Source of the DNA: Acidobacteriota bacterium
GTDB lineage: Bacteria; Acidobacteriota; JAAYUB01
DNA length: 64,000 nucleotides
Assembly (NCBI GenBank): GCA_040768985.1
Contig: JAXGLX010000002.1
Location: 4,485,871 to 4,549,870 of the forward strand
Reading direction: 5' to 3'
The translations under genes and the position numbers were made by a program. The notes beneath the pieces were generated by a model. That model was not told the DNA's origin. It ran no database searches and saw only the letters and a program-made list of their open reading frames with translations. Positions within the stretch are counted from its first letter, which is position 1, and each line of letters starts with the position of its first letter. Of this stretch, positions 5,989 to 61,473 are shown piece after piece.

Positions 5989-6007
5989 GGCAGTGGCTCT
6001 CTGCGCG

Positions 6008-6820
6008 TCAGGCTGTCGGTGGGCGAATGGAGAATTTCATCCGCAACCGGGTTCCCCGGCCGACCTCACTTTGGAGGTCCAACTCATCCGAATTTCTTTT
6101 GATGTTCGGCAAACCCATGCCCGAGCCGAAACCCATGGCCCGTTGTTCTTCGGTGGCCGTGGTGTACCCCTCCTGCATCGCCTCGGTCACGTCCGGAATG
6201 CCCTTGCCCTCGTCGTCGAGGATCACCTCGATGGCGTTGGGGGTGACCGCCAGGCTCACCTGGGCCCGCTTGGCGTGCATGATCACATTCATCTCACCCT
6301 CGTAGGTGGAGATGGCCACGCGCCGGACGATCGTGGGATCGACCCCGATCTTCTTCAGGATGGATTTCACTTCGGTGGATACCAGACCGGCCCGCGAGAA
6401 ATCGCTCCCTTCGATCAGGAACTGGTTATTCAACAGGATGGACTCGGACGGTGGCGGGATTTCCATGGGCAAACCCGCCAGGCCGGACTCATGGGTCAGG
6501 GTGTAAATCCGGACGCAGCTTTCGTACATGTCCAACTGGGTGGACATCAACACGATGTTGTGTTCCCGGGCGAATCGCTCGGCGCCGTCCTTGGTCTTTT
6601 TGCCACGGATCAGAACAACCCCGCGGAATTCGGCCATGTGAGCGGAGATGACCGACTGCTGGGAGGCGAGACCGGTCAACAGGATGGAGTCCGGTTTTCC
6701 GAACGCGAGCACGTCGCTCATCAGGTCCGAGGCGTAGATTTCCGTGATGTCGGTGGAGAGGAGATCCTCGCGGGCCAGCACGGCGGCTTCCAGCGCGAGT
6801 CTGATGGCATCAATCTTCAT
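6008..6820 (-). CDS. DRTGG-domain protein fused to HATPase_c-type anti-sigma regulatory factor-like Ser/Thr kinase domain
   Basis: Track ORF 270 aa; C-terminal ATPase G-box-like GFGSGMGLPNIKR; N-terminal half resembles DRTGG domain. Confidence 0.65.
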   Translation of the reverse strand: MKIDAIRLALEAAVLAREDLLSTDITEIYASDLMSDVLAFGKPDSILLTGLASQQSVISAHMAEFRGVVLIRGKKTKDGAERFAREHNIVLMSTQLDMYESCVRIYTLTHESGLAGLPMEIPPPSESILLNNQFLIEGSDFSRAGLVSTEVKSILKKIGVDPTIVRRVAISTYEGEMNVIMHAKRAQVSLAVTPNAIEVILDDEGKGIPDVTEAMQEGYTTATEEQRAMGFGSGMGLPNIKRNSDELDLQSEVGRGTRLRMKFSIRPPTA

Positions 6821-6904
6821 TCACACGCTCAGGGGACGGCGGTTCATTCAGCGTCTGGGCCGGGCCGATCCGCGAACGAGCAGGTTGTCGAACAGATACT
6901 GACG

Positions 6905-7240
6905 TTACTTGGCGACGAGTCCGAGCGAGTATAGTTTCCCGACCAGGTCGAAAGTCATCGTGTCAGTAGCGAGGAGGGCAATGTTATGACGGTTGGCCAG
7001 TTCGATGGTTTCCGGTGGGACACTCTTGCCGTTGGGGATGATGACGGCCGCAACATCCACCAGGTTGGCTGCCGGGACGATGCTCTTGTGGGTTTGCACG
7101 GTCACCCAGAGATTGCCGGATTTTGCGCCCGCCATGACATCACTCAGCATGTCGGAGATGAACACGCCGCTGATCTCCCGGTGCTCAAACTGGCTCAACG
7201 GCTTCAGCCCGAGGATGTCGATCACTTCTTTTGTCGTCAT
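6905..7240 (-). CDS. DRTGG-domain protein (small regulatory partner)
   Basis: Track ORF 111 aa; similar in sequence to the N-terminal half of the 6008-6820 product (ISDMLSDVMAG vs ASDLMSDVLAFG). Confidence 0.6.
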   Translation of the reverse strand: MTTKEVIDILGLKPLSQFEHREISGVFISDMLSDVMAGAKSGNLWVTVQTHKSIVPAANLVDVAAVIIPNGKSVPPETIELANRHNIALLATDTMTFDLVGKLYSLGLVAK

Positions 7241-7283
7241 AGTTCAAGCTCCGTGCAAAGATGGATGTTGGTCCCGGTTGCGA

Positions 7284-7826
7284 TTAAAACAACGGCTTTC
7301 GTTCCACCAGCGGCTTCTGCGAGAGCATGCCGACATCATGGATGAACTCACCCCGGCACAGGGCGATCTTCGGGATCCGGTCGAAGGAAATGAATCGGAC
7401 GGTGGACCGCGAGGTGTCGCGGCGCTGGTTGAAATACGCGCCGAGTATGTCCAGCCGCCTCTTGCTGATCGGGGTCCGCAGCCCGTCCGGCAGGTTGGAA
7501 AAGGCGACCAGGATCCAGGTCCGCTTTTTCTCCGCCCGCTTGCGGATTTTCTCCACAGCGCAATCGGGCAGGCAGGAGGTGCAGTACATCAGTCCCAGCA
7601 GGTCTTGGAAACTTTCACGCCGCTGGCAGAGCGCGCACTCGAGGTTGAAGCGGATGGTCTGGGCGTTCTCGACGATGCTCCAGGTGCAGTCTCCTTCCTT
7701 GTACTGATCCCACGTGTCCTGGGTGGAAAAGTAGGTCCGGAGTTCCTGGCAATGGGAGCAACGCTCGAAGACCGAGAAACCGAACTGGACGTCCACCATT
7801 TTCCACGCATGCTGGCAATGTGACAT
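7284..7826 (-). CDS. Cys-rich zinc-ribbon-like hypothetical protein (start moved to internal Met MSHCQ)
   Basis: Track ORF 7284-7877; CxxC pairs (CSHCQ, CALCQ, CTSC) plus further Cys/His; first gene of the minus-strand cluster. Confidence 0.45.
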   Translation of the reverse strand: MSHCQHAWKMVDVQFGFSVFERCSHCQELRTYFSTQDTWDQYKEGDCTWSIVENAQTIRFNLECALCQRRESFQDLLGLMYCTSCLPDCAVEKIRKRAEKKRTWILVAFSNLPDGLRTPISKRRLDILGAYFNQRRDTSRSTVRFISFDRIPKIALCRGEFIHDVGMLSQKPLVERKPLF

Positions 7827-8289
7827 CAGTGCACACCTGATAACAAAATAACAAGCCAGGCCTGCCGCCTGATCCAATGTGCGTACAAGAATGACCGGAA
7901 CAGTCTGAGTCAGGTTAATTCAGCAATACCGCGATGTCAAGGGATTGTTGCCGGAATCCAGGTTCGTCGGCACGCCGGGCGATGAAACAGAACGGTGCCT
8001 CCGACCCGAATCGCCGCGCTCGGATGGCCGGAATCAGCGGAGTTGCGGCGTTAATGAACGAGTCACAGCCGGAGCATGGTCGGTTGATGATCAATCCCAT
8101 GCTGAAATCCTGTTCGACCCGCCGCGTGCCGTGGGTCGCCGGGAGGGACGCCTGAAGGTTGTGCGTGGCCCAGGTGCGCACGGTACGGGGGGGGCGACGG
8201 GCCCATCCATCACCACGCCGACTGTTTGGTTCCGGCTCCGCCGGGTTGGGATTACGAATCAGGATGACGCGCTCGAACCATCAACGACC

Positions 8290-8650
8290 AACTATCCGCG
8301 ATACTGTGAACCTGTGAATCCGTGAACATTCCAACGTTCGAACATTCAAACGGCTCCATTACGAACACGATCACGATTACGGATTACGAGCTGGAACCAT
8401 CAACTCTCAATGAGCGGAAACGAGCCTCGAGCCTCGAGTCTCTAGCCTCGATTACGATCACGATTACGAATTACGATTACGAATCTCGATTACGATTACG
8501 AATCACGAGCACGAGCCATCAACTCTCAATGAGCGGAAACGAGCCTCTAGCCTCGAGCCTCTAGCCTCGATTACGATCACGATTACGAATCTCGATTACG
8601 ATTACGAATCACGAGCACGAGCCATCAACGATCAACCATCAACGATCAAC
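8290..8650. repeat. Minisatellite array: two tandem ~105-120-bp units (approx 8397-8515 and 8516-8620) built from GATTACGA / CACGAGCACGAG / CCATCAAC / GAGCCTCTAGCCTCGAG submotifs, plus flanking partial units
   Basis: Direct reading: unit ccatcaactctcaatgagcggaaacgagcctc[g/t]agcctcgag...cgattacgatcacgattacgaat...cacgagcacgag occurs twice in tandem; second unit lacks one 13-nt tacgattacgaat subunit. Confidence 0.8.
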
Positions 8651-8684
8651 AGTTGGCGAGCTTTCCAACCCCGGGCGCAGGCAC

Positions 8685-17747: not shown

Positions 17748-19109
17748 ATGCGGGCGTTGCTGACTGTCGGGTTGATCGGCATCTTGCTGGCCCTGGCGGC
17801 CGCCCAGGGGGATCCGCGGGACCTGCCGCGGGTGCAGAGCGCCAACATCGTCTACCTGGGCTCCTTCGCGCTGCCGGAGGGCGACTTCGGCGGCTCGCGG
17901 TTCGGCTACGGCGGCAAGGGACTCTGCTTCTACCGGGAGCCGTCCGGCACGCCCTCGTTGTTCCTGCAGGGGCATGACTGGTACCCCGGGTTCGTGGCCC
18001 AGGTGTCCGTGCCGGACCTGGGCGGAACGGCGACCGTGCTCCAGGAGTTCCGCGACGTCACCGACGGCGCGCTGGCGACGCTGGCCACGTCGGATTCGTT
18101 CGTTTACGGCATGATGGTGTACGACGGGCGGCTCATCGTGGGCGCCTCGTGCTACTACGACGGGGACGCCAGCCAGGTGAACTCCCACGGCGTCTCGACC
18201 TTGAACCTGGCCGCCCCCGACGACTTCCAGGGATTTTACCCGATGGCCGCCGAGGCCAATCCGCGCTCCCTGGGGGGCTACATGACGGTGATCCCCGCCG
18301 AATGGCAGGCGCTGCTGGGCGGACCGGCGCTGACGGGCAAGGGATGCCTGTCCATCATCTCCAACAACAGCGCCGGACCGTGCGCCACGGTGTTCGACCC
18401 CGACGACGTGGGCGCCGCCAGCCCGATCCCCGGCTTCACCCTGATCTTCTACCCGCTGGCGCACCCGCTGGCGCCGGAGACCACCACCAACGAGCTGTTC
18501 AACCTGGCCACCCACATGGCGGGCATCGCCTTCCCGCCGGGGAGCCGGAGCGTGCTCTTCTTCGGGCGGCAGGGGACCGGGACCTACTGCTACGGCGTCG
18601 GCGGCGGCGTGGAGTGCGACGACCCGTGCGACGACAGCCACGGCACCCACGCCTGGCCGTACCGCCATCAGGTGTGGGCGTACGACGCCGCCGAGCTGCT
18701 CCAGGTGCGGAGCGGCGCGAAGGCCTGCTGGGAGATGCGTCCCTACGCGGTCTGGGCGCTCGAGGGGATGACCGGCGGCACCTGCGCCGACATGGAGGGC
18801 GCCGCGTACGATCCGGCGACGGGCCGCCTCTACGTCACCGAAAGCTACGCCGAGGAGCCCCGCGTGCACGTCTACCGGATCATGGTTCCGTCGGCGGTGA
18901 CGCGGGACGGCGACATCAACGGCGACGGCGGGTGCGACGTGCGCGACGCCGTGGTGCTGGCGGTGACGCTGGCGGGCGGCCTCGCCTCCGGCACGCCCCC
19001 CTGCGCGCGCCCGCTGGCGTGCGATTTCACCGGCGACGGGTCGCTGGACGCCGAGGACCTGCTGATCCTGGGCGCCTACTTCGCCGGCAGCCGGACCGCG
19101 CTTCCCTGA
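17748..19109 (+). CDS. Secreted hypothetical protein with C-terminal dockerin-like duplicated Ca-binding segment
   Basis: Track ORF 17745-19109; signal-peptide-like N-terminus; DINGDGGCDVRD and DFTGDGSLDAED loops each followed by a hydrophobic helix. Confidence 0.7.
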   Translation: MRALLTVGLIGILLALAAAQGDPRDLPRVQSANIVYLGSFALPEGDFGGSRFGYGGKGLCFYREPSGTPSLFLQGHDWYPGFVAQVSVPDLGGTATVLQEFRDVTDGALATLATSDSFVYGMMVYDGRLIVGASCYYDGDASQVNSHGVSTLNLAAPDDFQGFYPMAAEANPRSLGGYMTVIPAEWQALLGGPALTGKGCLSIISNNSAGPCATVFDPDDVGAASPIPGFTLIFYPLAHPLAPETTTNELFNLATHMAGIAFPPGSRSVLFFGRQGTGTYCYGVGGGVECDDPCDDSHGTHAWPYRHQVWAYDAAELLQVRSGAKACWEMRPYAVWALEGMTGGTCADMEGAAYDPATGRLYVTESYAEEPRVHVYRIMVPSAVTRDGDINGDGGCDVRDAVVLAVTLAGGLASGTPPCARPLACDFTGDGSLDAEDLLILGAYFAGSRTALP

Positions 19110-19285
19110 CCGGGCCGGTGTCGGGATCACCGGCCGGGCCGCAAACCGGCCGGCCTCGTTGATTCACGCGCCGATCACTTCACCACCACCTTGAGCAGCG
19201 TACCAGCCGGCAGGGCGTCGTCGAGCTGGACGCCGTTGAGGATCGCCGCCGCCTCGAGCTTGTCCGCGGCCACGCCCAACTGCTG
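19011..19285. repeat. Left copy of a ~275-bp diverged direct repeat (about 90% identity to 30423-30700) covering the dockerin-gene 3' end, the intergenic hairpin and the M48-peptidase 3' end
   Basis: Direct alignment of the two regions by eye. Confidence 0.8.
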
Positions 19286-19450
19286 GAATGCGAGCAGGGG
19301 GTGGTCGAAGGTCTGGCCCTCGCCGTAGCCTTGGCGGAGTCTTCACCGACAGCCCTGACAGGGCCGGTTGCGCCTGGCTGTACCGAGGCACGCTGCGACG
19401 CGCCGCTTTCGTGACGTCCTCGGGTGAGGTTCAACCCGTCAGGGTTTGTG
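19175..19450 (-). pseudogene. Decayed remnant of an M48 peptidase gene (paralogous to 30586-32067) with an internal deletion
   Basis: Reverse-complement reads ...RQGYGEGQTFDHPLLAFQQLGVAADKLEAAAILNGVQLDDALPAGTLLKVVVK*, matching the intact peptidase C-terminus but missing about 440 bp; right boundary uncertain. Confidence 0.6.
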
Positions 19451-19562
19451 GAGATAATCGGTGCGGGGCATCCTGTGTTCAATCTGCCGACTCCATCCGG
19501 TTGCGGAGGCTCTCGAAGCCCTCGCGCAGGGACTCCCGGCACTTCCGGCGTCTGCTAGCTTC

Positions 19563-19592
19563 TTGATTGAGTGTAGGTATTATGTGTAATAT
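19563..19592 (+). promoter_or_regulatory. Candidate promoter TTGATT-N18-TAATAT in an AT-rich patch upstream of the giant gene
   Basis: Hexamers read directly; locally low GC in an otherwise GC-rich window. Confidence 0.3.
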
Positions 19593-19664
19593 ATCCAACA
19601 TTCCCACAATCAGGCGGGACGCAGTTTGCGGGTGATGTTTTCCGGCCGGAAGGGTAGGTGAAAC

Positions 19665-22600
19665 ATGTTCAGATCGTCCCTGACACGGCACGGCAGCTTC
19701 TTCACCGGTCAAGAGCGGACGGATCGCCGGCAGCGTCCGGCCGGTCGCGTCGGACGCTGCGGGTTCGCGGTCGGGATCGTATTCATCGCCCTGGCCCGGC
19801 TGGGCGCCCAGGACCTGGAGATCGCCGGCGACCCATCGATCAACCGGTGCGAGGCCAAGGTCTACACCCTCACCCTGCAAAACGATTCCGGAAATCCGTT
19901 GACCCGCCTGGTGGCGAGTGCCGATCTCTCGCTGTTGACGGGATTTTCGTACGTGCCCGGCAGCACCTCGATTTGGGTCAACGCCGAGCCGGTGTTCTGC
20001 ACCGCCGATCCTGCGGCCGGCGGCGGCTCCTTGATCTGGGACCTGGATGCGCTTTGCGGCCCGACGGTGGGCCTGGACGATGGCGACACGCTGAGTGTCA
20101 CCTTTCAGCTTCAAACGGCGTGCGCCGCCGTCTCCGGTTCCCTGGGCAGCCGGTTTAACTATGACATTGCGGGGACGCCGTCCGAGATCTTAGCGGCCCG
20201 CGCCATCCAGGTGTTGCCGGGCCGGCTGAGCATCCGGAAAACCCCCAGCGTCATCTCCCAGGAGGTGGGTCAAAACGTCACCTGGACCATCGCCGTGGAG
20301 AACACCGGCCTGGGAACGGTCCGGAACGTGGTGGTGACCGACGGGTTGGGGGCGGGCCTCGAGTACGTGGCGTCGTCGCCGGCCGGCCTCAACGCCGGGC
20401 CGACGACCCGCTGGGATGCGGCCCAGGTGCCGGGCCTGGCGCTGATGGTTCCCGGCGACATCATCACCCTCGACGTCACGGTGAAAGTCATCGCCTGCAC
20501 CGGCCTGGACAATTCCGCCGACGCGCGGTGGGGCTGCAACCCGGCGACCGACTGTTTCGACACCGCCGTCGACGGCGGGACGGCCACCGCGGTGGTGCAG
20601 CGGATCCCCCGTTCTCCCAGCCTGAGCTTGACGCCCCCCGACATCGGTTTCTCATACTGCGAGGACAGCGGCCCGCAGGCCTTGAGTGTGGAGAATATCG
20701 GTGACGGGACGGCCCGAGCGGTCGAGCTGTGGATCGACTTCAGCCCGCTGGCCGTCGCCGCGTCGTCGGTCCCCTACAACGCCGCCGGTTACTTTGAGCT
20801 GCCCGACATCGCCGCTGGCGGCCGTGTCGACGTGACGTTCACCCTGGCGTACGCCGGCTGGTGCGGCGGAGCCGACCTGGCGGGAACGCTGATCTGGCAA
20901 CCGCGCTACGCCGACGACTGCGGCGGCGCCTATTTCGCCCCGGTGGAATACAGCGAGATCCTCCCGGCAACCGGGACGCCCGGCCTTTCGGTCGACGTCA
21001 CCGGCGCCCCCGACGTCATCTCCATCGGGGACGCGGTCACGTACGCCGTCACATCCAACTATTCGGGGACCTTGAACTGCGGCGCGGGGAGCGTCGGGGC
21101 CGTCACCGTCACCGACACGGTCCCCGCGGGCTTCACCGTCGTGGACGCCGGCGGCGGGACCTGGGTTCCCGGGGCCGGCGGCACCGGCGGCGCGGTGACC
21201 TGGGCCTATCTCCCTCCCGCCACCCTCGCCACGACGCTGACCCTCCAAGCGCCCCTCCGGGACGAGTGCGAAACCTGGTGCTTCACCACGTTCGCCAACT
21301 CCGTCGAAGCCTCCGTCACCGACTGCTGCGGCTGTGAGCACACGGCGGCGGCGTCGCAGTCTTCGGCGATCGTGTGCGAGGAACTGGTCATGGTCACCCG
21401 GACCGCCACGCCGGCCACCGCGGAGCGCTGCTCGAATATCCTGTACACCAACATGTATGCATTCGACGGCTCGGCCGGCGCCCTCCTCAACGAGTTGGTG
21501 TTCACCGAACGGGCCGACCATCAGCAGCAGTACGTCCCCGGATCGCTGACCGTCACTTTCGACGGCGGTGACGTCACCGGATGCGTGCTCGTCACCGACA
21601 CGACCCCGGGCGGGACGCTGACCCTCGACTTCTCCGGTTGCGCCGCCGCCGCGGTGGGCGCGAAAGCGCTGGTCATCACCTACCAGCTGACCATCACCGA
21701 GGCCACCGCCGCCGCCTGCGGGGGAACGGAATTCTACGCCTGGTCCGCCCTGCAGCAGGGGAGCACCGGATCCCAGTGCCTTGTGGACGGGACCATCTAC
21801 GAGGCCGTCGCCGTCGCCGTCGAGGCGCCGGCCATGTCTCTCCGGTTGTCGGGCCTGTCGACGGTCGTGGACCGGTGCCGGACGGAGACGGTGACCCTCA
21901 CCCTGGCCCAAACGTCCATGGCCGCCAATCCCCGGGACGTCCGGCTCGTGCTGTCCGGCCTGAACTATTACGTGGTCAATCCAAGCGCAGCCATTTGCGC
22001 CGGCGACGTTTCGCCCATCTCCTGCACCCCCGCCCTGGTGGGGGACGACTTCGTCTGGTATTTCGGCGACGGATTCACCGGTGCCGGGCAGAGTTGCGTC
22101 CTCCAGTTCCAGGTGCAGAAGCGCTGTTCCGGCGGGGGGAGCCTGGAGGCCACGGCCTTCTTCGACGACCGCTGCCACGACGACGGCGTTTATGACGATA
22201 CCTGCTCCGTGAGTGGCGGCCTGACCCCCGCCGCCATCCGCGGAGGCGACCTGCTGGTGGAAGTGAGTCCGGAGGTCTACCAGGCCGCCTCCTCTTCGGT
22301 GGAGTGGAAGGTTTTCGTCACCAACCGGGGCGCGGGCACCGCCGCCAACGTGTGGGTGGATCACTTCCTGGGCGCCGGGCTCGATTTCAGTTCCGCTGTC
22401 GTCGACGACATGACCGGCGTCACCGTCACCGCCGACATGGACCACACCGGGGGCGCCGTCAACGGCGCCACCGTCGCCATCGACGCCCTGGCGCCCGGCG
22501 AGCGGCGGGAAATTTCCTTCCACGCGGTCCTGATCGACACCTTTAACCTGACCCTCGACGTGGCCGCCGCCTGGGGCTGCGTCGGCGTCGACTGCCAGTC

Positions 22601-25600
22601 GGCCGTGCGGGACAGTTCCACGGTGGAGACCCTCACGCCCATGCTGGTGGACACCGCCGTCGTGACCACTCCCGTGGATGCCTGCGGCGGCTCCACGGGC
22701 ACGCTCACGCTCCGCAACGCCGGACAGACCGCCTGCTACAACGGCCAGGTCACGGAGACGTTGCCGGCCGGCCTGCGGTACGTCTCCGGCACGACCCGCT
22801 GGCGGGTGAACGGCGGAGCATGGAACGGGCCCGACGCCGCCTACGACCCCAATCCCACCGTCTCTCCCCTGCGCTGGACCGCCACCGGGATCCCGGGATT
22901 GGCGGTTCTGAACCCGGGGGACACCCTGGATGTGGACTACGACTTGTCCGCGGACTGTCCCTTCACCGGCGGGCCGGTCACGGTCACCGTGTCGTACGAG
23001 GACCCCGGCGGGCAGGTCATCAACAATCCGGCGTCCACCTTCTCCGTGGCGTTCCGGGCGCCCGACCTCCGGGTGACGAAAACCCGGGCCGACCAACCGG
23101 TAAGCTGCGGGGAACTCATCGAGTGGACCATCGCGGTGGAGAACCAGAGCGGCTACACGCTTCCCATCGTCTGGGTCGAGGACACCCTGGATGCCGCCTT
23201 TACCTTCAACTCCTCGGTGGGAGACCCGCCCTACACGGCCGACGACGGCACCTTTGACGGCGTGAATCGGGTCAGCTGGGAACTGAGCTATCTTGGTCCC
23301 GGAGAAACCGCGATTCTGACCTTGCGGGCCTCATTGGATTCATCACCCTGCAGCCCGGACCTGGACAACACGGTCCGGGCCTGGTGGGGTTGCGGAACCG
23401 CCGACGGCTCGTCTGCAACCCAGCCAGGCGTGGATCCTCCCGATAACGGCCTTTGTCTGAACCCGACGCCGGTGAGCTACGTACGCACCGAGACCCGGCA
23501 GCCGAGCTTGACCGATTTCGCCGTCGGCCTCTCCCCCGCATCCATCGATGCCTGCAACGGCGGCACCGAAGTGACCTTCGCGTGCGCCAACACCGGCACC
23601 ACGGATGCTTTCCTCCTCGATGTCGAGATCTCCCTGCCCGCCGGGCTGACGTACAATCCCGGGACCGCCCGACTGTATGTCGGAGCCGACGGCACGGGCG
23701 CCACCACACCCATCGCCGATCCCGCCGTTTCGGGGAATCGGCTGATCTTTTTCGACACGGCCGACAAGGTCAACAACCTGGTCGATGTGCTGCAGGCCGC
23801 CGGTGGCAGCGACACGCTGGTGCTGAAATTCGAATTGCGATCGGATTGCTTTTTCGCGGCCGACCTGGGATACGCCGTGCGCTTCTACGACTGCTGCGGC
23901 GACACCCAGTACCAGCTCAGCGGCAGCCAGACAGTGCCGGCGCTCAACCCCGAGCTGACCGTCACCCAGGCGCCGGCATCCGCGCAGATCGCCTGCGGGG
24001 GACAGCAGGCCTGGACCATCACCGTCACCAACACGGGGGCGGGTAACGCCCAGGTGGTCCGAATCGAGGACACGCCCGGCGCCTGGATTACCGTGGACCC
24101 GGGCGCCTCCACCGCCGGGCTGACGGACCTGGGCTCCGGAAAGTGGGGCTGGGAGATCAACGATCTCGCCTCCGGCGGCGCGCAGGTCTTCACCCTGGCG
24201 GGAACCCTGAACCCGGCCGGGAACGGCTGCGATGCGTCCCGGCGCGAAAACAACGTCCGGGCTGTCTGGGGGTGTGGCACCGCCGGCGATGCCACCGACG
24301 GCGATCCCCTCACCCAAAGTTACGACTGCACCTCGGCGGTCTGGGCGACCGCCCCGACCGCCATTCTCCGGCTGCCCAACCTGGCCGTTGGCGCCGTCGC
24401 GCCTGCGGCCGCCTGCGCCGCCGACGGATCCTTCACCGGCAGCATCGCCGTCTCGATCGTCAACGCCGGCGACGGGAGCACCGGCGGCGGCTTCCTGATC
24501 CAGGCCGCCGACGGGCAGGGCTGGACCGGCACCTTCGCTTGCGCCAACATCCTCGCCGCCGGAGAAACTCTGAACCTCGACATCCCGGGCTCCTCCTGGT
24601 CGCCGGCGTGGGTGCCCGCCTGCACCCCCTGCGCCGCGGCCTCGCCCTACAGCTTCACCGTCGTGCTCGACCCGACGGGCGCCGTCTGCGAGTGCGACGA
24701 GAGCGACAATGCCCTGGCCGGGATCCTCTTCGACGTGCACCGCCCCGAACTGGCGGTGACGGACATCGATTTTGCGCTCGTCGCCTGTTCCGGCGACCAG
24801 GTCGCCGGCGCCATCCGCGTCCGCGTGGACAACACCGGGTGCGCAGACGCGGCCGGGGTCGTGGTTCGACTGACAGCCGACTGCGGGCTCACCTTCGGCG
24901 ACCAGATCACCAATGTGCCGGCGGGATCCCACACCCTGGCCGAGTTCCCGATCGTTGACGGTGCTTGGAACGACTGCGCCGACGAAACCTGCGCCTTCAC
25001 GGTCGCGGTGGATCCGGCGGGGCTGATCTGCGAGTGCGTGAGCGGCGGCGACACCCTCGGACCCGTGACCCACACGCTGTCCCTCCCGGACCTTGAGGTG
25101 ACCGACATCGAGCTGGGCGCCCTGAGTTGCGACAGCGGCGTCGTGTCCGGTTCGGCGTCCGTCACCGTCCGCAACGCGGGGAGCGGCGCGGCGGGCGCCT
25201 TCAGCGTCAGCCTGTCCACCCCGGCCGGCCTGGCGTTCACCGACCAGCCCGTCGCCGCGCTGGCTGCGGGCGAGAGCATCACCCTCGTATTCCCCGCTGC
25301 GGGGAGCCTGCCCGACTGCTGCCTCTGCGCGGCCGATTTCACCGCCGCGGCCGACGCCGCCCAGGCTGTCTGCGAGTGCCGGGGGGACAACAACGTCCGC
25401 ACCGTCCGGCCCGCGGCTGCGGACAAGATCTACTGGACGGACGAGAGTGCCGGCGCCATCCAGCGCGCCGAGGCCGACGGCGCCTCCGTGGAAGCGGTGC
25501 TCGCCGGGCTGGCCGGACCCCGCGCCGTGACCCTCGACGGGACCGGCGGCAAGATGTACTGGCTCGAGCCGGCCGGCGGCGTTCTCCGCCGGTCGAACCT

Positions 25601-28600
25601 GGACGGCACCGATCCCGAAACCCTGCTGGACAGCCTGTCGGCGCCGGTGGCCCTGGCTCTCGATCCGGCCGCCGGTCTGCTCTACTGGACCGACGCCGCG
25701 GGGGTGCACCGGGCTGGCCTCGACGGCGCCGATCCGGAGAATCTCATCCCCTCCGTGACGGATGCCGCCGGCATCGCCGTCGACTCCATCACCGGACGGC
25801 TCTATTTCGCCCAACCCGACGGCCGGATCCGCGGGGCGAACCTTGACGGCAACGACCTTCAGGAGGTGATCGCGGGCCTGGGCAGTCCCTTCGGCCTGGC
25901 GCTGGACATCCGGAACGGCATGCTCATATTCTCCGATCCGCTGACCGGCCTGATCCAGCGGATCTATCCGGACGGCACCGGCCTGACAACCGTGCTCGGC
26001 GGCCTGGAGTCCGCGGTGGGGTGCCTGGCCCTGAACGCGGAGGCCGAAACGGTCTACTACGAGACCCGGGGCGCCGCCATCCGCCGGGTGGGCCTGGACG
26101 GCGCGGGGGACGCGGCGATCGTCGACGGCCTGGACCAGTCGGGCGGTGTGGCCGTCCTGAAACTCAACACGGCGCCTACGGCCACGGAGATGAACCAGAC
26201 CCGCGACTATCTCCAGGGCGCCGCGACCGTGCCGCTCAACGATATCGTCGTGACCGATCCGGACTTCTGCGATACGGTCATGGCCGTCCTGATCCTGGCC
26301 GACCCGTCGTTGGGCGGTCTGTCCGACAGCAGCGGGCACGGCGAAACCTACGACGCCGCGGCGGGCCGGTGGACGGTCACCGGATCCGTGGCGGACGTCA
26401 ACGCCGCCCTGGCCGACGTCGCCTTCCTTCCGGTCCCCGACAATCCCGATGCCGAAACCGTCACCGTCCGGATCCGGGACGCTTCGGGGGCAGGCCCCGC
26501 CGATGGCGCCGTGGTCCTGGGCGTGATTCCCTATCCGGTCATTTCCGGGAGCGTCCGGCTCAACGGCGCCGGTGTCGCCGGCGTGGCGATGAACGGCCTG
26601 CCGGGCGGCATCGCCACTGACGCCTCCGGCGGCTACAGCGCCGTGTTGCCCCACGACTGGTCCGGGACAGTCACCCCGGACCTCGCCGGTTACCATTTCA
26701 CTCCCTCCAGCCGGACCTACGCCAACGTCGCCGTGGACCAGCCGGACCAGGACTATACCGCCACGGCCGCCACCGCCGCCGTCCTGGTTTCGGAACCGAA
26801 TCCATCGGTCTTCGGCGATCCGGTGACCCTGACGGTGACGGTCTCTTCCGCCGCCGGCCCGCCGCCCGGCACGGTGCGTTTTCTCGACGGCGCCGTCGAG
26901 ATCGGATCGGGGACACTGTCGGCCGGAGCCGCCGCTTTCTCCACCAGTCTGCTCTCCGGCGGGCTCCACGTCCTCACCGCCGCATACGACGGCAGTCCCG
27001 GCTACGAGACATCGGTTTCACCGCCCGTGAACCACCCGGTCAACCCGGCCGCCACGGCGACGAACCTCTCGTCGGCGCCCAATCCCTCGGTCTTCGGCGA
27101 CGCCGTGACCCTGACGGCCGTGGTCAGCTCCGGAGCGGGCACGCCGTCCGGGACAGTCACCTTCTTCGAGGGAGCCACGGTTCTCGGGAGCCAGGCGCTG
27201 GCGGGCGGTGTCGCCACTGTGGTTATTCCGTCGCCCCCTGGCGGCATTCACGGCTACAGCGCCGCCTATTCCGGCAACGCCGACCACCAGCCGTCCGCTT
27301 CGGCCGTCCTGAACCACTTGGTTCAACCCGCCCCCACCGCCACAACCCTGTCGTCGGCGCCCAATCCCTCGGTCTTCGGCGTCGCCGTGACCCTGACGGC
27401 GGTGGTGGTCTCTCCCGTCCCGGCGCCCGCCGGGAGTGTGGCCTTCCGCGACGGCGTCGTGGTGCTGGGAACGGTCGTCCTCTCCGGCGGCGGGACCGCG
27501 GTGTTCACCACGTCCGCGCTCACCGGGGGGACGCATTCGTTGACGGCCGAGTATCTCGGGACCGCGAACCACGCGGCCTCCACCTCCCCGGCCGTCCTGC
27601 AAACGGTTCGCCGGGCCGCGACCGCCACGACGGTCTCGTCGTCCGTCAACCCGTCCCGGTACGGACAGCCGGTGACGTTCACCGCCGCGGTGGCCGGCCC
27701 CGGGAGTCCGCCCACCGGCACCGTCGTTTTCCGGGCGGACGGCGCCGATCTCGGTCCGGCGGTGCCCCTGTCGGGCGGCATGGCCGTCCTGACCACTTCC
27801 GACCTGGCGGTGGGCGGCCACACGATCACCGCGCACTACCGGCCCATGGCCGACCCGAATCACCTGCCCAGCGAGGAGTCGCTGACCGGCGGGCAGAACG
27901 TCGTCAAGGCAGACACGACGACCGCCCTGACGACCAGCCGATCGTCGAGATATGGAGAAGCGGTCAACCTCACGGCCGTCGTGGCGGTGATCCCGCCCGG
28001 GAGCGGAATGCCCTCGGGAACGGTGACGTTTTTTGACGGAGTGACTACCCTGGGAACAGGTACACTGTCGGGCGGAACGGCGACCTTCACCACGACGGCC
28101 CTGGCGGTGGGGCCGCACCAGCTGGCGGCCCGGTTCGAGGGGAACGCCTCGCTGAATCCCAGCGTATCGCCGTCCACATTCCACCGGGTGTATATGGCCC
28201 TAACCGGCACGGTGCTGGCGGCCGCGCCGAATCCCTCGCACCGGGGCCAGACTGTGACGTTCACGGCGACGGTGACGGCGACACCTCCGGGAGCGGGAAC
28301 GCCCACCGGGACGGTGACGTTCCGGGACGACGGGGTCGCTCTCGGCAGTGCGCCGCTGTCGAACGGTACGGCGACGTGGGCTACCGCGCAGTTGACGATG
28401 GGCACGCATCCTATCACCGCGGGATATTCCGGTGACGAGAATTTTCGGTCGAGCGATTCGGAGATCCTGTCCCAGGCCGTGGAACGGGCGGAGACGGCCA
28501 CCACGCTCCATGTGTCACCGAGCCCCGTCTGTCCGGGCGGGACGGTGACCTTGACGGCCATGGTGTCCGTCGTGCCCGCTGGTGAAGGGACACCGACGGG

Positions 28601-30341
28601 GAGTGTCGAATTCCGGGACGGCCCGGAGCTGCTGGGAACGGTGGCGCTGGACGGCAATCTCGCGGTGTCGATCACCCTCGCTGCCCCGGAAGCGGGGACC
28701 CTGATCGTTTCCGCCGCTTACTCGGGTGACGGGGAGTTCATGGGAAGCAGTTCCGATCCGCTGGACCTGGAGGTGGCGGAGCCGCCGGCGGTGACCCTGG
28801 ATCCGATCCCGACCACGGTCGGATCGTGGGCGAGCGCCGCGCTCACGGTGGAATACTCGGGGACGGAACCCGTCTCGATCCAGTGGTACGAGGGAGCCAG
28901 CGGCGACACATCCCTGCCGGTGCCGGGAGCGACCGAGGCCACCCTCGCCACTCCGGCGGTGGACTGGGATACCGGCTACTGGGCCCGGTTGCAAAACGAC
29001 TGCGGCCAGACGGACAGCGCGGCGGCGGCCGTGACGATCCGGAACACCTATTACCTGGCGCACGTGGCCATGGACGACTTGTGGTGGACGTCACTGACGG
29101 CGGTCAACTGGAGCGAACACGATCACCCGGTGGTCTTGGAGGCGTTTGGCGCGGACGGCACTTTGCTGGAAACGCGCACGCTGGATCAACTGGGTTCCCG
29201 GTGCCAGTTGGCGCAGGACGCGTCGGAGTTGTTCTCCGCGGAAACGCTGGCGCAGGACGTCTGGGTGAGAACCACCACCGCTTCGGACCTGAAGGGCCTC
29301 GTGGCGTTCGGGACCACCGACGGGGAAACCCAGGCCAACCTGCCGTTCCTGAAGGCGGCGTCCTTCCACTCGGCCTTCCCCTACGTGGTAACGGGGGTGG
29401 CCGGCTGGTACACCGGACTGACCTTGGTGAACACCGACGAGACGCCGGCTTCGGTCCGGCTGACCGCTCGGGATGAAGACGGCGGCATCCTGTCGGAGCA
29501 GGCAGTCGCCATCCCGGGCTATGGGAAGTACGTCCGGTTTCTTGAGGAGATTTTCCCGGACGTCGCCGATCCGACGCGGCTCCGAAACGTCCGGGTGCTT
29601 TCGGACCGGCGCCTGGTGGGATTCGAACTCTTCTGGAACCTCGACCTGGCGGGCCTCGCCGGATTGCCCGCTGTGTCCATGGACGAATTGCCGCCGGACG
29701 GCGGCACATACGATCACTTCTTCAACGAGATCCCGGATTCGGGTAGTTACTATACCGGCATCACCTTCGTGAATCTGGATCAGGCGCCGGCTGCCATCGC
29801 CGCCGCCGCCTTCGATGCGGCCGGATCGCAGTTGGGGACGGAATATCTTGAACTGCCTCCCGGCAGCCAGTTGACCCGGGAGCTGCAGGCCGTGTTTCCG
29901 CCCCCGGACTATGCCGCGGCCGCGTACATCCGCTGGGACGCCCCGCAGCGCGTGACGGGTTTCGAGCTGGTGCTGACCCGGGATGGAGAATTCCTGTTCG
30001 ACGGCCTGGTGGGAGGGCTGGAACCCTGGCACCGGCTGGTGTTCCCGGCGGCCTCGCCCTCGGGCGGTTCAGTGCGGCTGCGGCTGACGAACCAGGAGAA
30101 CCTCCACCTGAATCTGGAGATCACGGCATACGACGCGGCGGGGGTGGCGCTGGCCACCCGCCCGGCAGACCTCGACGCGTACCAGTTGCTGGACCTGAAC
30201 CTGGGAGCCGACCTGGCGCCGGTGGCGGCGGAGATCGCCTGGGTGGAAGTGGAAGGCGACGGCCTGATGGTGGGCGACGCGTTCATCATCTCGGCCGACG
30301 GAAAGCGCCTGGTCATCTATGCCGGCTTTCCGGCGTGGTGA
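19665..30341 (+). CDS. Giant (3558 aa) secreted/cell-surface multi-domain protein: DUF11-like repeats, CARDB-like domains, YWTD-type six-bladed beta-propeller, seven Ig-like repeats, C-terminal repeated beta-sandwich-like modules
   Basis: Single uninterrupted track ORF; signal-peptide-like N-terminus; YWTD-like blades (KIYWTD, KMYWLE, LLYWTD, RLYFAQ, MLIFSD, TVYYET); repeated PNPSVFG...VTLTA Ig-like units; CECxxxDN motifs ending CARDB-like units. Confidence 0.85.
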   Translation: MFRSSLTRHGSFFTGQERTDRRQRPAGRVGRCGFAVGIVFIALARLGAQDLEIAGDPSINRCEAKVYTLTLQNDSGNPLTRLVASADLSLLTGFSYVPGSTSIWVNAEPVFCTADPAAGGGSLIWDLDALCGPTVGLDDGDTLSVTFQLQTACAAVSGSLGSRFNYDIAGTPSEILAARAIQVLPGRLSIRKTPSVISQEVGQNVTWTIAVENTGLGTVRNVVVTDGLGAGLEYVASSPAGLNAGPTTRWDAAQVPGLALMVPGDIITLDVTVKVIACTGLDNSADARWGCNPATDCFDTAVDGGTATAVVQRIPRSPSLSLTPPDIGFSYCEDSGPQALSVENIGDGTARAVELWIDFSPLAVAASSVPYNAAGYFELPDIAAGGRVDVTFTLAYAGWCGGADLAGTLIWQPRYADDCGGAYFAPVEYSEILPATGTPGLSVDVTGAPDVISIGDAVTYAVTSNYSGTLNCGAGSVGAVTVTDTVPAGFTVVDAGGGTWVPGAGGTGGAVTWAYLPPATLATTLTLQAPLRDECETWCFTTFANSVEASVTDCCGCEHTAAASQSSAIVCEELVMVTRTATPATAERCSNILYTNMYAFDGSAGALLNELVFTERADHQQQYVPGSLTVTFDGGDVTGCVLVTDTTPGGTLTLDFSGCAAAAVGAKALVITYQLTITEATAAACGGTEFYAWSALQQGSTGSQCLVDGTIYEAVAVAVEAPAMSLRLSGLSTVVDRCRTETVTLTLAQTSMAANPRDVRLVLSGLNYYVVNPSAAICAGDVSPISCTPALVGDDFVWYFGDGFTGAGQSCVLQFQVQKRCSGGGSLEATAFFDDRCHDDGVYDDTCSVSGGLTPAAIRGGDLLVEVSPEVYQAASSSVEWKVFVTNRGAGTAANVWVDHFLGAGLDFSSAVVDDMTGVTVTADMDHTGGAVNGATVAIDALAPGERREISFHAVLIDTFNLTLDVAAAWGCVGVDCQSAVRDSSTVETLTPMLVDTAVVTTPVDACGGSTGTLTLRNAGQTACYNGQVTETLPAGLRYVSGTTRWRVNGGAWNGPDAAYDPNPTVSPLRWTATGIPGLAVLNPGDTLDVDYDLSADCPFTGGPVTVTVSYEDPGGQVINNPASTFSVAFRAPDLRVTKTRADQPVSCGELIEWTIAVENQSGYTLPIVWVEDTLDAAFTFNSSVGDPPYTADDGTFDGVNRVSWELSYLGPGETAILTLRASLDSSPCSPDLDNTVRAWWGCGTADGSSATQPGVDPPDNGLCLNPTPVSYVRTETRQPSLTDFAVGLSPASIDACNGGTEVTFACANTGTTDAFLLDVEISLPAGLTYNPGTARLYVGADGTGATTPIADPAVSGNRLIFFDTADKVNNLVDVLQAAGGSDTLVLKFELRSDCFFAADLGYAVRFYDCCGDTQYQLSGSQTVPALNPELTVTQAPASAQIACGGQQAWTITVTNTGAGNAQVVRIEDTPGAWITVDPGASTAGLTDLGSGKWGWEINDLASGGAQVFTLAGTLNPAGNGCDASRRENNVRAVWGCGTAGDATDGDPLTQSYDCTSAVWATAPTAILRLPNLAVGAVAPAAACAADGSFTGSIAVSIVNAGDGSTGGGFLIQAADGQGWTGTFACANILAAGETLNLDIPGSSWSPAWVPACTPCAAASPYSFTVVLDPTGAVCECDESDNALAGILFDVHRPELAVTDIDFALVACSGDQVAGAIRVRVDNTGCADAAGVVVRLTADCGLTFGDQITNVPAGSHTLAEFPIVDGAWNDCADETCAFTVAVDPAGLICECVSGGDTLGPVTHTLSLPDLEVTDIELGALSCDSGVVSGSASVTVRNAGSGAAGAFSVSLSTPAGLAFTDQPVAALAAGESITLVFPAAGSLPDCCLCAADFTAAADAAQAVCECRGDNNVRTVRPAAADKIYWTDESAGAIQRAEADGASVEAVLAGLAGPRAVTLDGTGGKMYWLEPAGGVLRRSNLDGTDPETLLDSLSAPVALALDPAAGLLYWTDAAGVHRAGLDGADPENLIPSVTDAAGIAVDSITGRLYFAQPDGRIRGANLDGNDLQEVIAGLGSPFGLALDIRNGMLIFSDPLTGLIQRIYPDGTGLTTVLGGLESAVGCLALNAEAETVYYETRGAAIRRVGLDGAGDAAIVDGLDQSGGVAVLKLNTAPTATEMNQTRDYLQGAATVPLNDIVVTDPDFCDTVMAVLILADPSLGGLSDSSGHGETYDAAAGRWTVTGSVADVNAALADVAFLPVPDNPDAETVTVRIRDASGAGPADGAVVLGVIPYPVISGSVRLNGAGVAGVAMNGLPGGIATDASGGYSAVLPHDWSGTVTPDLAGYHFTPSSRTYANVAVDQPDQDYTATAATAAVLVSEPNPSVFGDPVTLTVTVSSAAGPPPGTVRFLDGAVEIGSGTLSAGAAAFSTSLLSGGLHVLTAAYDGSPGYETSVSPPVNHPVNPAATATNLSSAPNPSVFGDAVTLTAVVSSGAGTPSGTVTFFEGATVLGSQALAGGVATVVIPSPPGGIHGYSAAYSGNADHQPSASAVLNHLVQPAPTATTLSSAPNPSVFGVAVTLTAVVVSPVPAPAGSVAFRDGVVVLGTVVLSGGGTAVFTTSALTGGTHSLTAEYLGTANHAASTSPAVLQTVRRAATATTVSSSVNPSRYGQPVTFTAAVAGPGSPPTGTVVFRADGADLGPAVPLSGGMAVLTTSDLAVGGHTITAHYRPMADPNHLPSEESLTGGQNVVKADTTTALTTSRSSRYGEAVNLTAVVAVIPPGSGMPSGTVTFFDGVTTLGTGTLSGGTATFTTTALAVGPHQLAARFEGNASLNPSVSPSTFHRVYMALTGTVLAAAPNPSHRGQTVTFTATVTATPPGAGTPTGTVTFRDDGVALGSAPLSNGTATWATAQLTMGTHPITAGYSGDENFRSSDSEILSQAVERAETATTLHVSPSPVCPGGTVTLTAMVSVVPAGEGTPTGSVEFRDGPELLGTVALDGNLAVSITLAAPEAGTLIVSAAYSGDGEFMGSSSDPLDLEVAEPPAVTLDPIPTTVGSWASAALTVEYSGTEPVSIQWYEGASGDTSLPVPGATEATLATPAVDWDTGYWARLQNDCGQTDSAAAAVTIRNTYYLAHVAMDDLWWTSLTAVNWSEHDHPVVLEAFGADGTLLETRTLDQLGSRCQLAQDASELFSAETLAQDVWVRTTTASDLKGLVAFGTTDGETQANLPFLKAASFHSAFPYVVTGVAGWYTGLTLVNTDETPASVRLTARDEDGGILSEQAVAIPGYGKYVRFLEEIFPDVADPTRLRNVRVLSDRRLVGFELFWNLDLAGLAGLPAVSMDELPPDGGTYDHFFNEIPDSGSYYTGITFVNLDQAPAAIAAAAFDAAGSQLGTEYLELPPGSQLTRELQAVFPPPDYAAAAYIRWDAPQRVTGFELVLTRDGEFLFDGLVGGLEPWHRLVFPAASPSGGSVRLRLTNQENLHLNLEITAYDAAGVALATRPADLDAYQLLDLNLGADLAPVAAEIAWVEVEGDGLMVGDAFIISADGKRLVIYAGFPAW

Positions 30342-30414
30342 GTCTGGAGGAGTGGAATATCCTGAACCGTCGGGGCGTCCGGCCTGGTTGGGGCGGGAAC
30401 AGCCCACCCGGAAT

Positions 30415-30520
30415 GCTGCCCCCGCTGGCGTGCGATTTCACTGATGACGAGTCGCTGGACGCGGCGGACCTGCTGATCCTGGACGCCTACTTCGCCGGCC
30501 GCCGGACCGCGCTTCACTGA
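30415..30520 (+). pseudogene. Dockerin-like C-terminal module fragment, out of frame (+2) with the giant ORF
   Basis: Track ORF 30335-30520 tail ...LPPLACDFTDDESLDAADLLILDAYFAGRRTALH matches the C-terminus of the 17748-19109 product. Confidence 0.5.
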
Positions 30521-30700
30521 CCGGGCCGGTGTCGGGATCACCGGCCGGGCCGCGGACCGGCGGGCTCCGGTGATTCACGCGCCGCTTACTTCACCACCAC
30601 CTTGAGCAGCGTGCCGGCCGGCAGGGCGGCGTCGAGCTGGACGCCGTTGAGGATCGCCGCCGCCTCAAGCTTGTCCGCGGCCACGCCCAACCGCTGGAAC
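30423..30700. repeat. Right copy of the ~275-bp diverged direct repeat
   Basis: Aligned by eye to 19011-19285. Confidence 0.8.
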
Positions 30701-32067
30701 GCCTGGCGGGCGGTGCCGGCCGCGGCGGTTTTCCGGAGCGTCAGCTTGTTCGGCTTGGCGTTGAGCTTCGCCGGATCCGTCAGGTTGTTGAAGCCGGCCA
30801 TGGTTTGCTTGAACACGGAAAAGTAGCGGTCGAACAGCGACGGGTCGGTGTAGCTGTGGAACACGTAGACGTACTTGTCCTTCTGAATGAAGGACGACGC
30901 GACGCGGATGTTTCCCTGCTCCAGCGCGACGTCGGAGACCAACTGCTGTGCGAGCAAGCCGTTGATCCGCGCGGCTTGTGATTGAAGGATGGACGCCTGG
31001 CTCTCCTGCCGGAACGCCTCCGCGGCCGCCGCCGGCGAGGCGCCGGGGGCCATGGAGAACAGGATCACCGCGTCCTGCTGCGCGGCGTAGAGCTGCACCT
31101 GGGCCGCGGTGTTGTTCACCTTCCAGCCCGAGGGCACCGGGAACTGGAACGCGAGCTGGGGATGATAGAAAGTCTGCCCCTCGACGTAGCCCTGGCGGGG
31201 GTCTTCGCCGAAGACGAGCCCCTCGAGGCGGCTGAGGTACCCGTCGCGGTTGGTGACGAACGCCGCGCCTGCCAGCTTTTCCTGCCAGACCTGGGCGTCG
31301 CGCCGGATGGCCGCGATCCGGTCCGGAGGGTTGGGGTGGGTGGAGAACCAGCCGGGCAGGCCGCTGCGGTCGGAGCCCGGGTTGAGCCGCTCCAGCGTGA
31401 CGAACATGTTGGCCATGTGGTTGGCGTCAAACCCGGCCCGGGAGGCATACTCGACGCCCAGGGCGTCCGCCTGGCGCTCGTCGTCGCGGCTGAACTTCAG
31501 GAAGAGCATGCTCAGCCCCAGTTGGGCGATGCCGGCGTACTTCTGGAACGTCTCGGAGAACATGCTGCCCACGCCCAGCCCCAGCATGGCCAGTTGCGCC
31601 TGGCTGTACTGGCGCACGCTGTGGCGCGCCGCGATGTGGCCGATCTCGTGCGACATGACGCCGGCCAGCTCCGCCTCGTCGTTGAGGTAGGAGAGCATCC
31701 CCCGGGTCAGATACACGTACCCGCCGGGGACCGCGAAGGCGTTCACCACGTCGCTGTCCACCACCTGGAGGGTGTAGGTCAGGTCCGGCCGGTGGCTCAG
31801 CGCGCCCAGCTTGTGGCCCAGCGCGGCCACGTAGGCGTCGAGTTCCGGGTTGTTGTACTTGCCGTACGTCTGCAGGATCTCGGGATCGAGCTGCTTGCCC
31901 AGGGCGATCTCGTCGGCGGTGGAGACGAGCATCAGCTCCCGTTTGCCCGTGACCGGATTCTTCGCGCAGGACATGCTCCAGATCACCAGGGTGGCCGCCA
32001 CGACCACGGCAGCGGTCCGCCAAACGATGGAACGACGCATCGCGCACCTCCTGATAGTGGGAACCAA
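30586..32067 (-). CDS. M48-family zinc metalloprotease with C-terminal extension
   Basis: Track ORF 493 aa; HEIGH zinc-binding motif; N-terminal signal/lipobox-like region; alternative start at MRRSIV (32040). Confidence 0.85.
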   Translation of the reverse strand: MVPTIRRCAMRRSIVWRTAAVVVAATLVIWSMSCAKNPVTGKRELMLVSTADEIALGKQLDPEILQTYGKYNNPELDAYVAALGHKLGALSHRPDLTYTLQVVDSDVVNAFAVPGGYVYLTRGMLSYLNDEAELAGVMSHEIGHIAARHSVRQYSQAQLAMLGLGVGSMFSETFQKYAGIAQLGLSMLFLKFSRDDERQADALGVEYASRAGFDANHMANMFVTLERLNPGSDRSGLPGWFSTHPNPPDRIAAIRRDAQVWQEKLAGAAFVTNRDGYLSRLEGLVFGEDPRQGYVEGQTFYHPQLAFQFPVPSGWKVNNTAAQVQLYAAQQDAVILFSMAPGASPAAAAEAFRQESQASILQSQAARINGLLAQQLVSDVALEQGNIRVASSFIQKDKYVYVFHSYTDPSLFDRYFSVFKQTMAGFNNLTDPAKLNAKPNKLTLRKTAAAGTARQAFQRLGVAADKLEAAAILNGVQLDAALPAGTLLKVVVK

Positions 32068-35174: not shown

Positions 35175-35183
35175 GGAACGGCC

Positions 35184-59909: not shown

Positions 59910-60124
59910 TCGGCCGGCGAGTGAATCCCGACGCGATCCGGTCCCGCCGGATGCGTTCGGATTGGGGCATGCCGGCCGGTCCGGGTTCTTGCGGCGAGAT
60001 GATCCCTCCGCCGACGGACACCCTGAGCATCCGACCGGGCAAAAAATCGACCAGCCGTTCAACTATCGTCCAAACGCGCCATCCTAATAGAAGTAACCAT
60101 CATTATCTCAAGGAGGAACACCGA

Positions 60125-61386: not shown

Positions 61387-61473
61387 TCCGTCGGCTTCGT
61401 ACGAGACCATCCGGACGGCCGCCCGCGCGGCCGGCCTGAACGTTTTATCATCATATCCGGTTAAGGAGGCACT

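Follow-up and report, generated by a model that had tools for sequence, protein, structure and literature searches.

The stretch analysed here, 64 kb of a contig from an uncultured Acidobacteriota bacterium (JAXGLX010000002.1; hereinafter, the window), encodes on its plus strand a protein of 453 amino acid residues (aa) that appears to consist of a secretion signal, a beta-propeller body from an unannotated family and a C-terminal dockerin. The gene is followed by a strain-specific island that carries a giant gene and is flanked by a direct repeat. The features are listed below; residue numbers of the body and the dockerin are in a 454-aa scheme counted from the alternative start codon, GTG 17745, which leads to the same stop at 19109.

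17736-17741, plus strand: Shine-Dalgarno-like GGGAGG, 6 nt before ATG 17748, read from the sequence
17748-19109, plus strand: gene for the dockerin-tailed secreted protein, 453 aa, stop codon included, from the list of open reading frames (ORFs)
17748-17804, plus strand: signal peptide MRALLTVGLIGILLALAAA, predicted cut before QG, by inspection of the sequence
17832-18884, plus strand: beta-propeller body, aa ~30-380, from the AlphaFold2 model; unannotated family
18906-19082, plus strand: dockerin module, aa 388-446, above the gathering cutoff of Pfam PF00404 and with matches to dockerins in the PDB
18912-18947, plus strand: calcium-binding loop 1, DINGDGGCDVRD, D390-I-N-G-D-G-G-C-D-V-R-D401, read from the translation
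19023-19058, plus strand: calcium-binding loop 2, DFTGDGSLDAED, D427-F-T-G-D-G-S-L-D-A-E-D438, read from the translation
19007-19291, no strand assigned: direct repeat copy 1, comprising the terminal 103 nt (with the stop codon) of the dockerin gene, a spacer of 67 nt and a relic, 115 nt long, from the 3' end of a minus-strand M48 peptidase gene
19292-30417, plus strand: strain-specific island, 11.1 kb, comprising an AT-rich upstream region and the giant gene
19665-30341, plus strand: gene for a giant, likely surface protein of 3,558 aa, with five DUF11 domains, CARDB, LDL-receptor class B (YWTD) repeats and seven Big_3_5 domains
30418-30702, no strand assigned: direct repeat copy 2, comprising a relic half-dockerin (30418-30520, the last 33 codons and the stop), the spacer and the M48 3' end

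The gene is real, functional and under purifying selection, as indicated by the Shine-Dalgarno site, the presence of orthologs and the low ratio of nonsynonymous to synonymous substitution rates (dN/dS). ATG 17748 is also the start of the database protein P0001, which is 100% identical by local alignment. Orthologs from two Acidobacteriota metagenome-assembled genomes (MAGs; L004 and L005) share 93-94% aa identity with the window protein, and a further relative (L006) shares 78%. The dN/dS of the body in the comparisons with these three relatives is 0.17-0.25, and that of the dockerin tail is higher, 0.4-0.6. The secreted ORF of about 450 aa reported in the initial annotation is thus present. 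Its N-terminus has n-, h- and c-regions arranged as in Sec signal peptides, as judged by inspection, without a signal-peptide tool; inspection of the same region found no lipobox cysteine. Residues 2-20 are modeled as a helix by AlphaFold2, and the N-termini of the homologs are similarly hydrophobic. A minus-strand ORF (17703-19130) and other overlapping ORFs were rejected as shadows of GC-rich sequence, which are expected at 68% GC; homologs and purifying selection back the plus-strand frame only. A scan of the region downstream of the gene detected no terminator-like site, and a GC-rich inverted repeat located after the stop codon was dismissed as a candidate terminator because it folds no better than shuffled sequence (z = -1.56).

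By comparison with profile hidden Markov models (HMMs), the tail of this protein is a genuine dockerin, type-I-like and with two predicted calcium-binding F-hands. It scores 26.8 bits against Pfam Dockerin_1 (PF00404), passing the gathering cutoff of 22.9 (E = 6.1e-6), with aa 389-445 aligned to positions 2-55 of the 57-position profile. About ten PDB sequences match the protein at E ≤ 1, all within the tail (aa 386-454): nine of these matches are dockerins or cellulosomal proteins (the best being 2y3n_B, E = 6.2e-5), and two marginal ones (E about 0.3) are serine protease. Positions 1, 3, 5, 9 and 12 of the 12-residue loops are occupied by D, N, D, D and D in loop 1 and by D, T, D, D and D in loop 2, so that the predicted ligand positions in both loops are as expected of a type I dockerin, with threonine at position 3 of loop 2. 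The duplicated dockerin-like calcium-binding segment that had been noticed at the C-terminus is therefore borne out by the Pfam score, the PDB matches and the two loops. Behind the loops, helices are predicted at aa 399-410 and 436-446 in the full-length model, with a predicted local distance difference test score (pLDDT) of only 40-60; a single-sequence model of the tail alone includes the equivalent helices and is of poor quality (pLDDT 47.8).

Two cysteines of the tail, Cys397 (18933-18935, position 8 of loop 1) and Cys426 (19020-19022, directly before loop 2), co-vary among seven close relatives: both are present in five, and two have phenylalanine and alanine at these positions. In this small sample of non-independent sequences, the pair hints at a disulfide staple that is not typical of clostridial dockerins. 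A third cysteine, in the PPC motif of the linker, is invariant among the relatives compared.

The closest described counterparts of this tail are the type I cellulosomal dockerins (PF00404; PDB 2y3n_B, 6kgc chain B and 2ccl chain B), with which it shares a size of about 60 C-terminal residues on a secreted protein, two tandem 12-residue calcium-binding loops, each followed by a helix that is modeled here at low confidence, and an HMM score past the Pfam cutoff. Unlike these dockerins, it comes from a diderm acidobacterial host, is attached to cargo that is not a known plant-cell-wall enzyme, has no cohesin or scaffoldin in the window, and is characterized by a linker with a PPC...LAC motif and by the co-varying cysteine pair. 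Furthermore, the two repeats of this tail are only 9/22 identical, and accordingly there is no sign of symmetric dual binding. The Dockerin_1 match and the likeness to cellulosomal dockerins could suggest that the protein acts on plant cell walls as an enzyme docked, within a multi-enzyme complex, to a scaffoldin with cohesins. However, Pfam and NCBIfam detect nothing in the protein apart from the dockerin, that is, no plant-cell-wall enzyme domain and no carbohydrate-binding module (CBM), the host with its lack of a scaffoldin or cohesin in the window is a diderm Acidobacteriota MAG, and the genomic contexts of the family described below include exopolysaccharide (EPS) biosynthesis and a fucosidase/sulfatase-maturation locus but not cellulases; we consider a cellulosomal component very improbable.

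As a dockerin-tailed protein, the window protein is ordinary. Dockerins outside cellulosomes are common but unexplained. Dockerin-like modules of non-cellulosomal proteins have been described (Peer et al. 2009, as cited in PMC5244752 and PMC10066038), and an adhesin role has been suggested for them (PMC10066038). The present case resembles these modules, with adhesion or assembly as their proposed functions, in that the dockerin is found in a non-clostridial host on a protein unrelated to cellulose degradation. It differs in having as cargo a member of a defined and very large family of propellers, others of which use S-layer homology (SLH), type IX secretion system (T9SS) or other tails.

The body of the protein had been described as unassignable and devoid of a recognizable catalytic domain, and sequence searches agree. 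At E ≤ 1, the only Pfam match in the whole protein is the dockerin, and NCBIfam yields no match; PDB sequences are not matched by the body either with phmmer or with a 57-sequence profile at E ≤ 10. The AlphaFold2 model built on the 57-sequence alignment (mean pLDDT 87.8, predicted template modeling (TM) score 0.84) indicates that the body, aa ~30-380, is a beta-propeller of 22 strands, with pLDDT of 81-98 in 10-residue blocks, mostly above 90. Foldseek comparison with the PDB and BFVD revealed only generic likeness to propellers, including WD40 and plexin-type proteins, GH130, GH43, PON1, luciferin-regenerating enzyme, ulvan lyase Uly1 and phage tail-spike propellers (query- and target-normalized TM-scores, TMq ≤ 0.40 and TMt ≤ 0.55; root-mean-square deviation 6-17 Å; 7-14% identity). 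There was no close structural neighbor (TM > 0.6) among solved or viral predicted structures, the best scores being TMq 0.39-0.40 and TMt 0.55. Because this similarity is generic, the attempt to assign the propeller to a described family was dropped. The same applies to the carbohydrate-active and calcium-dependent propeller hydrolases (GH43, GH130, Uly1, PON1, luciferin-regenerating enzyme and K1E endosialidase): the overall topology is alike, but the similarity is generic (TMq 0.2-0.4, TMt ≤ 0.55), WD40 proteins score equally, and no sequence match exists.

Judging from the sequence comparisons, the propeller is a member of a very large family that lies outside Pfam, NCBIfam and the PDB. A word-indexed search identified 453 relatives among 8,000 candidates scored; the best 120 cover 68-100% of the query and, apart from the exact match, are 46-78% identical to it. 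An exhaustive profile search retrieved 3,742 clusters (50% identity) at E ≤ 1e-3, 1,687 of them at E ≤ 1e-30. In the genome scan, the family was found in Acidobacteriota, Chloroflexota, Fibrobacterota, Verrucomicrobia, Gamma- and Deltaproteobacteria, Nitrospirae, Elusimicrobia and Actinobacteria, as well as in one Kerfeldbacteria MAG and one Woesearchaeota MAG; all records are MAGs except Desulfogranum japonicum DSM 18378. Within the window, the family HMM matches this ORF alone (E = 4e-197), with no second copy in the 64 kb. None of the 55 family members scanned has a Pfam family over the propeller.

The conserved motifs of the family, YYD, SHG, CYG...C.DP, GxHAYPY and WAYD, are all present in the window protein. 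Among 95 representatives at 34-53% identity, the near-invariant positions are Y138, D139, H148, S209, Y236, S269, Y283, H302, Y306, W311, Y313, D314, Y334, W337 and D356, together with a C282/C291 pair that would fit an extracytoplasmic protein. This pattern bears on whether the propeller is an enzyme or, instead, a non-catalytic protein on display at the envelope, such as a lectin, an adhesin or a scaffold for protein interactions. Many of the conserved residues are aromatic, beta-propellers are often binding platforms, the top Foldseek matches include WD40 and plexin-type proteins, and a neighbor in the window is the giant adhesin-like protein, all of which would suit binding. On the other hand, the retention of 35-60% identity across phyla and the near-invariant Asp and His residues would rather be expected of an active site, the existence of members fused to CBMs of their own suggests that the propeller is the effector rather than the binding unit, and location inside EPS operons matches processing enzymes. 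On balance, we deem a purely binding propeller unlikely.

The domain architectures of the family are diverse at the C-terminus. Among the 55 members longer than 440 aa, we found tails of the SLH (9), dockerin (8), fn3 (3), T9SS Por_Secre_tail (2), FlgD_ig (2), RTX (1) and PKD (1) types; the SLH, Por_Secre_tail, fn3, RTX and dockerin tails occupy the same position behind homologous propellers. The dockerin itself appears in at least three architectures: directly behind the propeller, after a spacer of ~150 aa (P0008 and P0009) and after fn3 (P0078). Long members additionally contain CBM6, CBM35, CBM96, Laminin_G_3, PA14 and right-handed beta-helix domains. The use of SLH, T9SS or other tails by members of the family lends indirect support to an anchoring role of the dockerin; the initial annotation's suggestion of an anchoring or sorting module fits this pattern, although the module is not, as had been proposed, shared with the giant protein. 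In addition, a C-terminal extension of ~90 aa without a Pfam match (...GGYNTSY...G...KG.LTI..GSLT...LEIW) is shared by P0010, P0012, P0018-P0021 and P0026, and may be another uncharacterized tail module of the family.

At 27 of the 79 genome loci, GT4, GT2, an AsnB-type amidotransferase or Wzy_C is encoded within 6 kb of the family gene, and 22 of the 79 harbor two or three tandem paralogs. An operon in a Nitrospirae MAG (L052, 59-10910) consists of a family gene, two sulfotransferases, Wzy_C, a second family gene, AsnB, a hexapeptide acetyltransferase and two GT4 genes, a composition that suggests a sulfated EPS pathway including the propeller family. A Fibrobacteria copy adjoins exosortase EpsH/EpsI, PEP-CTERM proteins, a TPR protein and a sigma-54 regulator, and the gene for the dockerin-bearing relative P0009 (54% identity) lies among genes for GH141/Pel9A-like, GH29 fucosidase, Cthe_2159, CBM4_9 and FGE-sulfatase proteins. 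Given the swapped tails, the CBM fusions, the EPS and exosortase operons and the glycan-degradation loci, the most likely role is that of an envelope protein in the binding or processing of polysaccharide; the contexts give no hint of the chemistry involved. PslG, PelA, BcsZ and AlgL are glycoside hydrolases or lyases that are encoded within EPS operons and have TIM-barrel or alpha/alpha-toroid folds. The analogy with these enzymes is functional only: in many relatives, the propeller is likewise a single-domain protein, secreted or periplasmic, with its gene lying among those for glycosyltransferases and the Wzy polymerase, but there is no relation in sequence or fold, the copy in the window lies outside an EPS operon, and any activity here is only predicted.

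The initial annotation also held that the same tail recurs after the giant gene. Strict regular expressions for dockerin loops found no second tail in the window, because the loop glycines of the relic have mutated. An HMM built from the tails does produce a second match, at 30398-30517 (E = 7.7e-9; the next best match has E = 0.48), with the translation PPLACDFTDDESLDAADLLILDAYFAGRRTALH*. A similar segment thus exists, but it covers only HMM positions 30-71, the second F-hand, lacks the first F-hand and the body, and lies 77 nt beyond the stop codon of the giant ORF (30341), in a different frame. In place of the two loop glycines it has D and E, and, by count from the repeat alignment, it differs from the dockerin gene by six nonsynonymous and two synonymous changes over 34 aligned codons. 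Repeat search and alignment place this segment in a 285-nt direct repeat with 92% identity between the copies (19007-19291 and 30418-30702) that flanks the 11.1-kb segment with the giant gene. The similarity that had been taken for a tail module shared with the giant protein belongs to this DNA repeat, spacer and M48 3' end included; neither a dockerin nor a cohesin domain is matched in the giant protein. The segment could still be imagined as a functional second copy of a shared anchor, for example, as the true C-terminal end of the giant protein that a frameshift has masked, in view of the significant similarity and its location just past the giant stop. This is extremely improbable: the DNA-level similarity runs on past the stop codon, across the spacer and over 115 nt of the M48 gene on the opposite strand, and the segment shows only the second F-hand, a different frame, loss of both glycines and an excess of nonsynonymous over synonymous changes. 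The tail fragment is a recombination footprint and has no part in the function of the dockerin protein.

Each copy of the repeat is an empty-site junction: the 3' end of the dockerin gene, the spacer and the 3' end of the M48 peptidase gene, the intact version of which is convergent (30586-32067, minus strand). The dockerin part of copy 1 is identical to L004 and L005 at 101/103 positions, and that of copy 2 at only 93/103. In L004 and L005, the flanks are 96-98% identical to the window, and other cargo occupies the same site (equivalent to window positions 19116-30586): a 1.4-kb insert with an HGSNAT/Acyl_transf_3-like membrane acyltransferase in L004 (7369-8733), and the same acyltransferase along with a 990-aa secreted protein without a Pfam match in L005 (7369-11860). 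The site between the dockerin and M48 genes thus looks like a hypervariable island for surface-related or glycan-related genes. The giant protein itself is likely an adhesin or surface protein, to judge from its domains; no domain match was found in its C-terminal ~450 aa, and an unusually AT-rich stretch (~19560-19610; ttgattgagtgtaggtattatgtgtaatatatcc) precedes its gene. The simplest reading of the junctions is that the island is strain-variable and was formed here by single-crossover (Campbell-type) integration of homeologous DNA bearing the junction segment.

The closest database contig, L083 (ENA, 2,144 nt), breaks off precisely with the stop codon of the dockerin gene. It encodes the cluster representative P0001, which differs from the window protein only in its last 12 residues; these match relic copy 2 (DAYFAGRRTALH). 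Such an ending could stem from recombination between alleles or from a break of the assembly within the repeat. The repeat and the island could themselves be a metagenome-assembly chimera that joins strain variants: an end at the stop codon with copy-2-type residues is typical of assembly-graph ambiguity at a repeat, and related strains do carry different cargo at the site. Nevertheless, an assembler would not collapse or confuse copies that are 8% apart, and a native-like copy 1 and a divergent copy 2 around the cargo are the pattern that a single-crossover integration of homeologous DNA would yield; an artifact is, in our estimate, quite unlikely.

Elsewhere in the window, upstream of the gene, there are aldehyde dehydrogenase and carboxylase genes, and downstream, the variable island and the M48 peptidase gene. 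A minus-strand cluster for sucrose metabolism (32191-36506) comprises a PfkB sugar kinase, a GT4 gene similar to sucrose-phosphate synthase and a fused 689-aa protein that combines sucrose-phosphate phosphatase with a GH100/invertase-like part. The GC fraction is 0.59-0.62 at positions 4001-10000 and 60001-64000, against a background of ~0.68. The window also encodes TonB-dependent-receptor-like, OEP, AcrB and OmpA-family proteins, and therefore the organism is diderm.

Taken as a whole, these observations make it an even chance, in our assessment, that the protein is a Sec-exported propeller that acts on or binds cell-surface polysaccharide, with the dockerin serving as an address label and the tail fragment behind the giant gene being irrelevant. 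The predicted modular protein, that is, the signal peptide, the beta-propeller of ~350 residues and the C-terminal type-I-like dockerin, would be exported via Sec. The propeller would bind, and probably cleave or trim, an extracellular or envelope polysaccharide, for which the cell's own EPS or an environmental, possibly sulfated, glycan are the candidates; D139, H148, H302, D314 and D356, along with many Tyr and Trp residues, are the likely contact or catalytic residues. The dockerin would be this lineage's version of the address label, which is argued on the ground that the same propeller bears other tails in other lineages. After calcium-dependent folding, it could hold the propeller on an envelope partner, either a cohesin-type module or another surface component. 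The island with the giant gene would owe its position, between the dockerin gene and the M48 gene that converges on it, to a recombination event that left the tail fragment behind.

Several observations weigh against this interpretation. The sequence reveals no catalytic activity or substrate, and the propeller has no close solved structure (TM ≤ 0.55). In the window, the gene stands alone among housekeeping genes, and it is solely in relatives, most of them 35-55% identical, that EPS and glycan contexts were seen. The dockerin is modeled at low confidence (pLDDT 40-60), and calcium-binding loop 2 is degenerate in several close relatives. The 72-aa tail as the sole query found no other protein with this type of tail; this search, aimed at other bodies with the same tail, returned just one 81-aa fragment, a yield that reflects word-index limits. 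In a diderm cell, export by way of a Sec signal and nothing else would end in the periplasm. Finally, a scan of 31 window ORFs (the giant protein and 30 others) detected no cohesin.

The last point, together with the lack of a flagged cohesin in the 20-kb neighborhoods of two other dockerin-bearing family members, raises the possibility of an orphan dockerin: a true dockerin fold that has no cohesin partner in the genome and acts as a calcium-dependent stabilizer, in low-specificity adhesion or by binding a non-cohesin surface component. The treatment of non-cellulosomal dockerins as possible adhesins (PMC10066038), the degeneration of loop 2 in relatives and the tail dN/dS above that of the body are in line with this explanation. 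However, the cohesin scan covered only 64 kb of the genome, both loops are canonical in the window protein, and the co-varying Cys397 and Cys426 suggest a maintained, stapled fold. We regard an orphan dockerin as possible but doubtful.

The reading of the protein as an exported propeller with an address label can be carried further. The propeller might found a new, widespread carbohydrate-active family (hydrolase or lyase) for bacterial, possibly sulfated, EPS, equipped with interchangeable anchors, in which case Acidobacteriota would have a dockerin-based, cellulosome-like docking in the diderm envelope for the remodeling of EPS rather than plant biomass. This extended scenario is speculative, and we would hold it to be rather less probable than otherwise.

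The repeat-flanked island with the giant gene illustrates how surface-protein cargo is exchanged at a fixed site among close strains. For the biology of dockerins, a single conserved propeller that carries SLH, T9SS, fn3, RTX or dockerin tails depending on the lineage provides a clean comparative handle. The propeller family itself is a modest lead: being large, missing from Pfam, NCBIfam and the PDB, and found time and again at loci for EPS biosynthesis or glycan degradation, it is a reasonable candidate for a new carbohydrate-active family, with relevance to the turnover of the biofilm matrix by bacteria of soil and sludge. The value of this case lies in the link between a large, unannotated propeller family and polysaccharide biology, and in the modular-anchor pattern.

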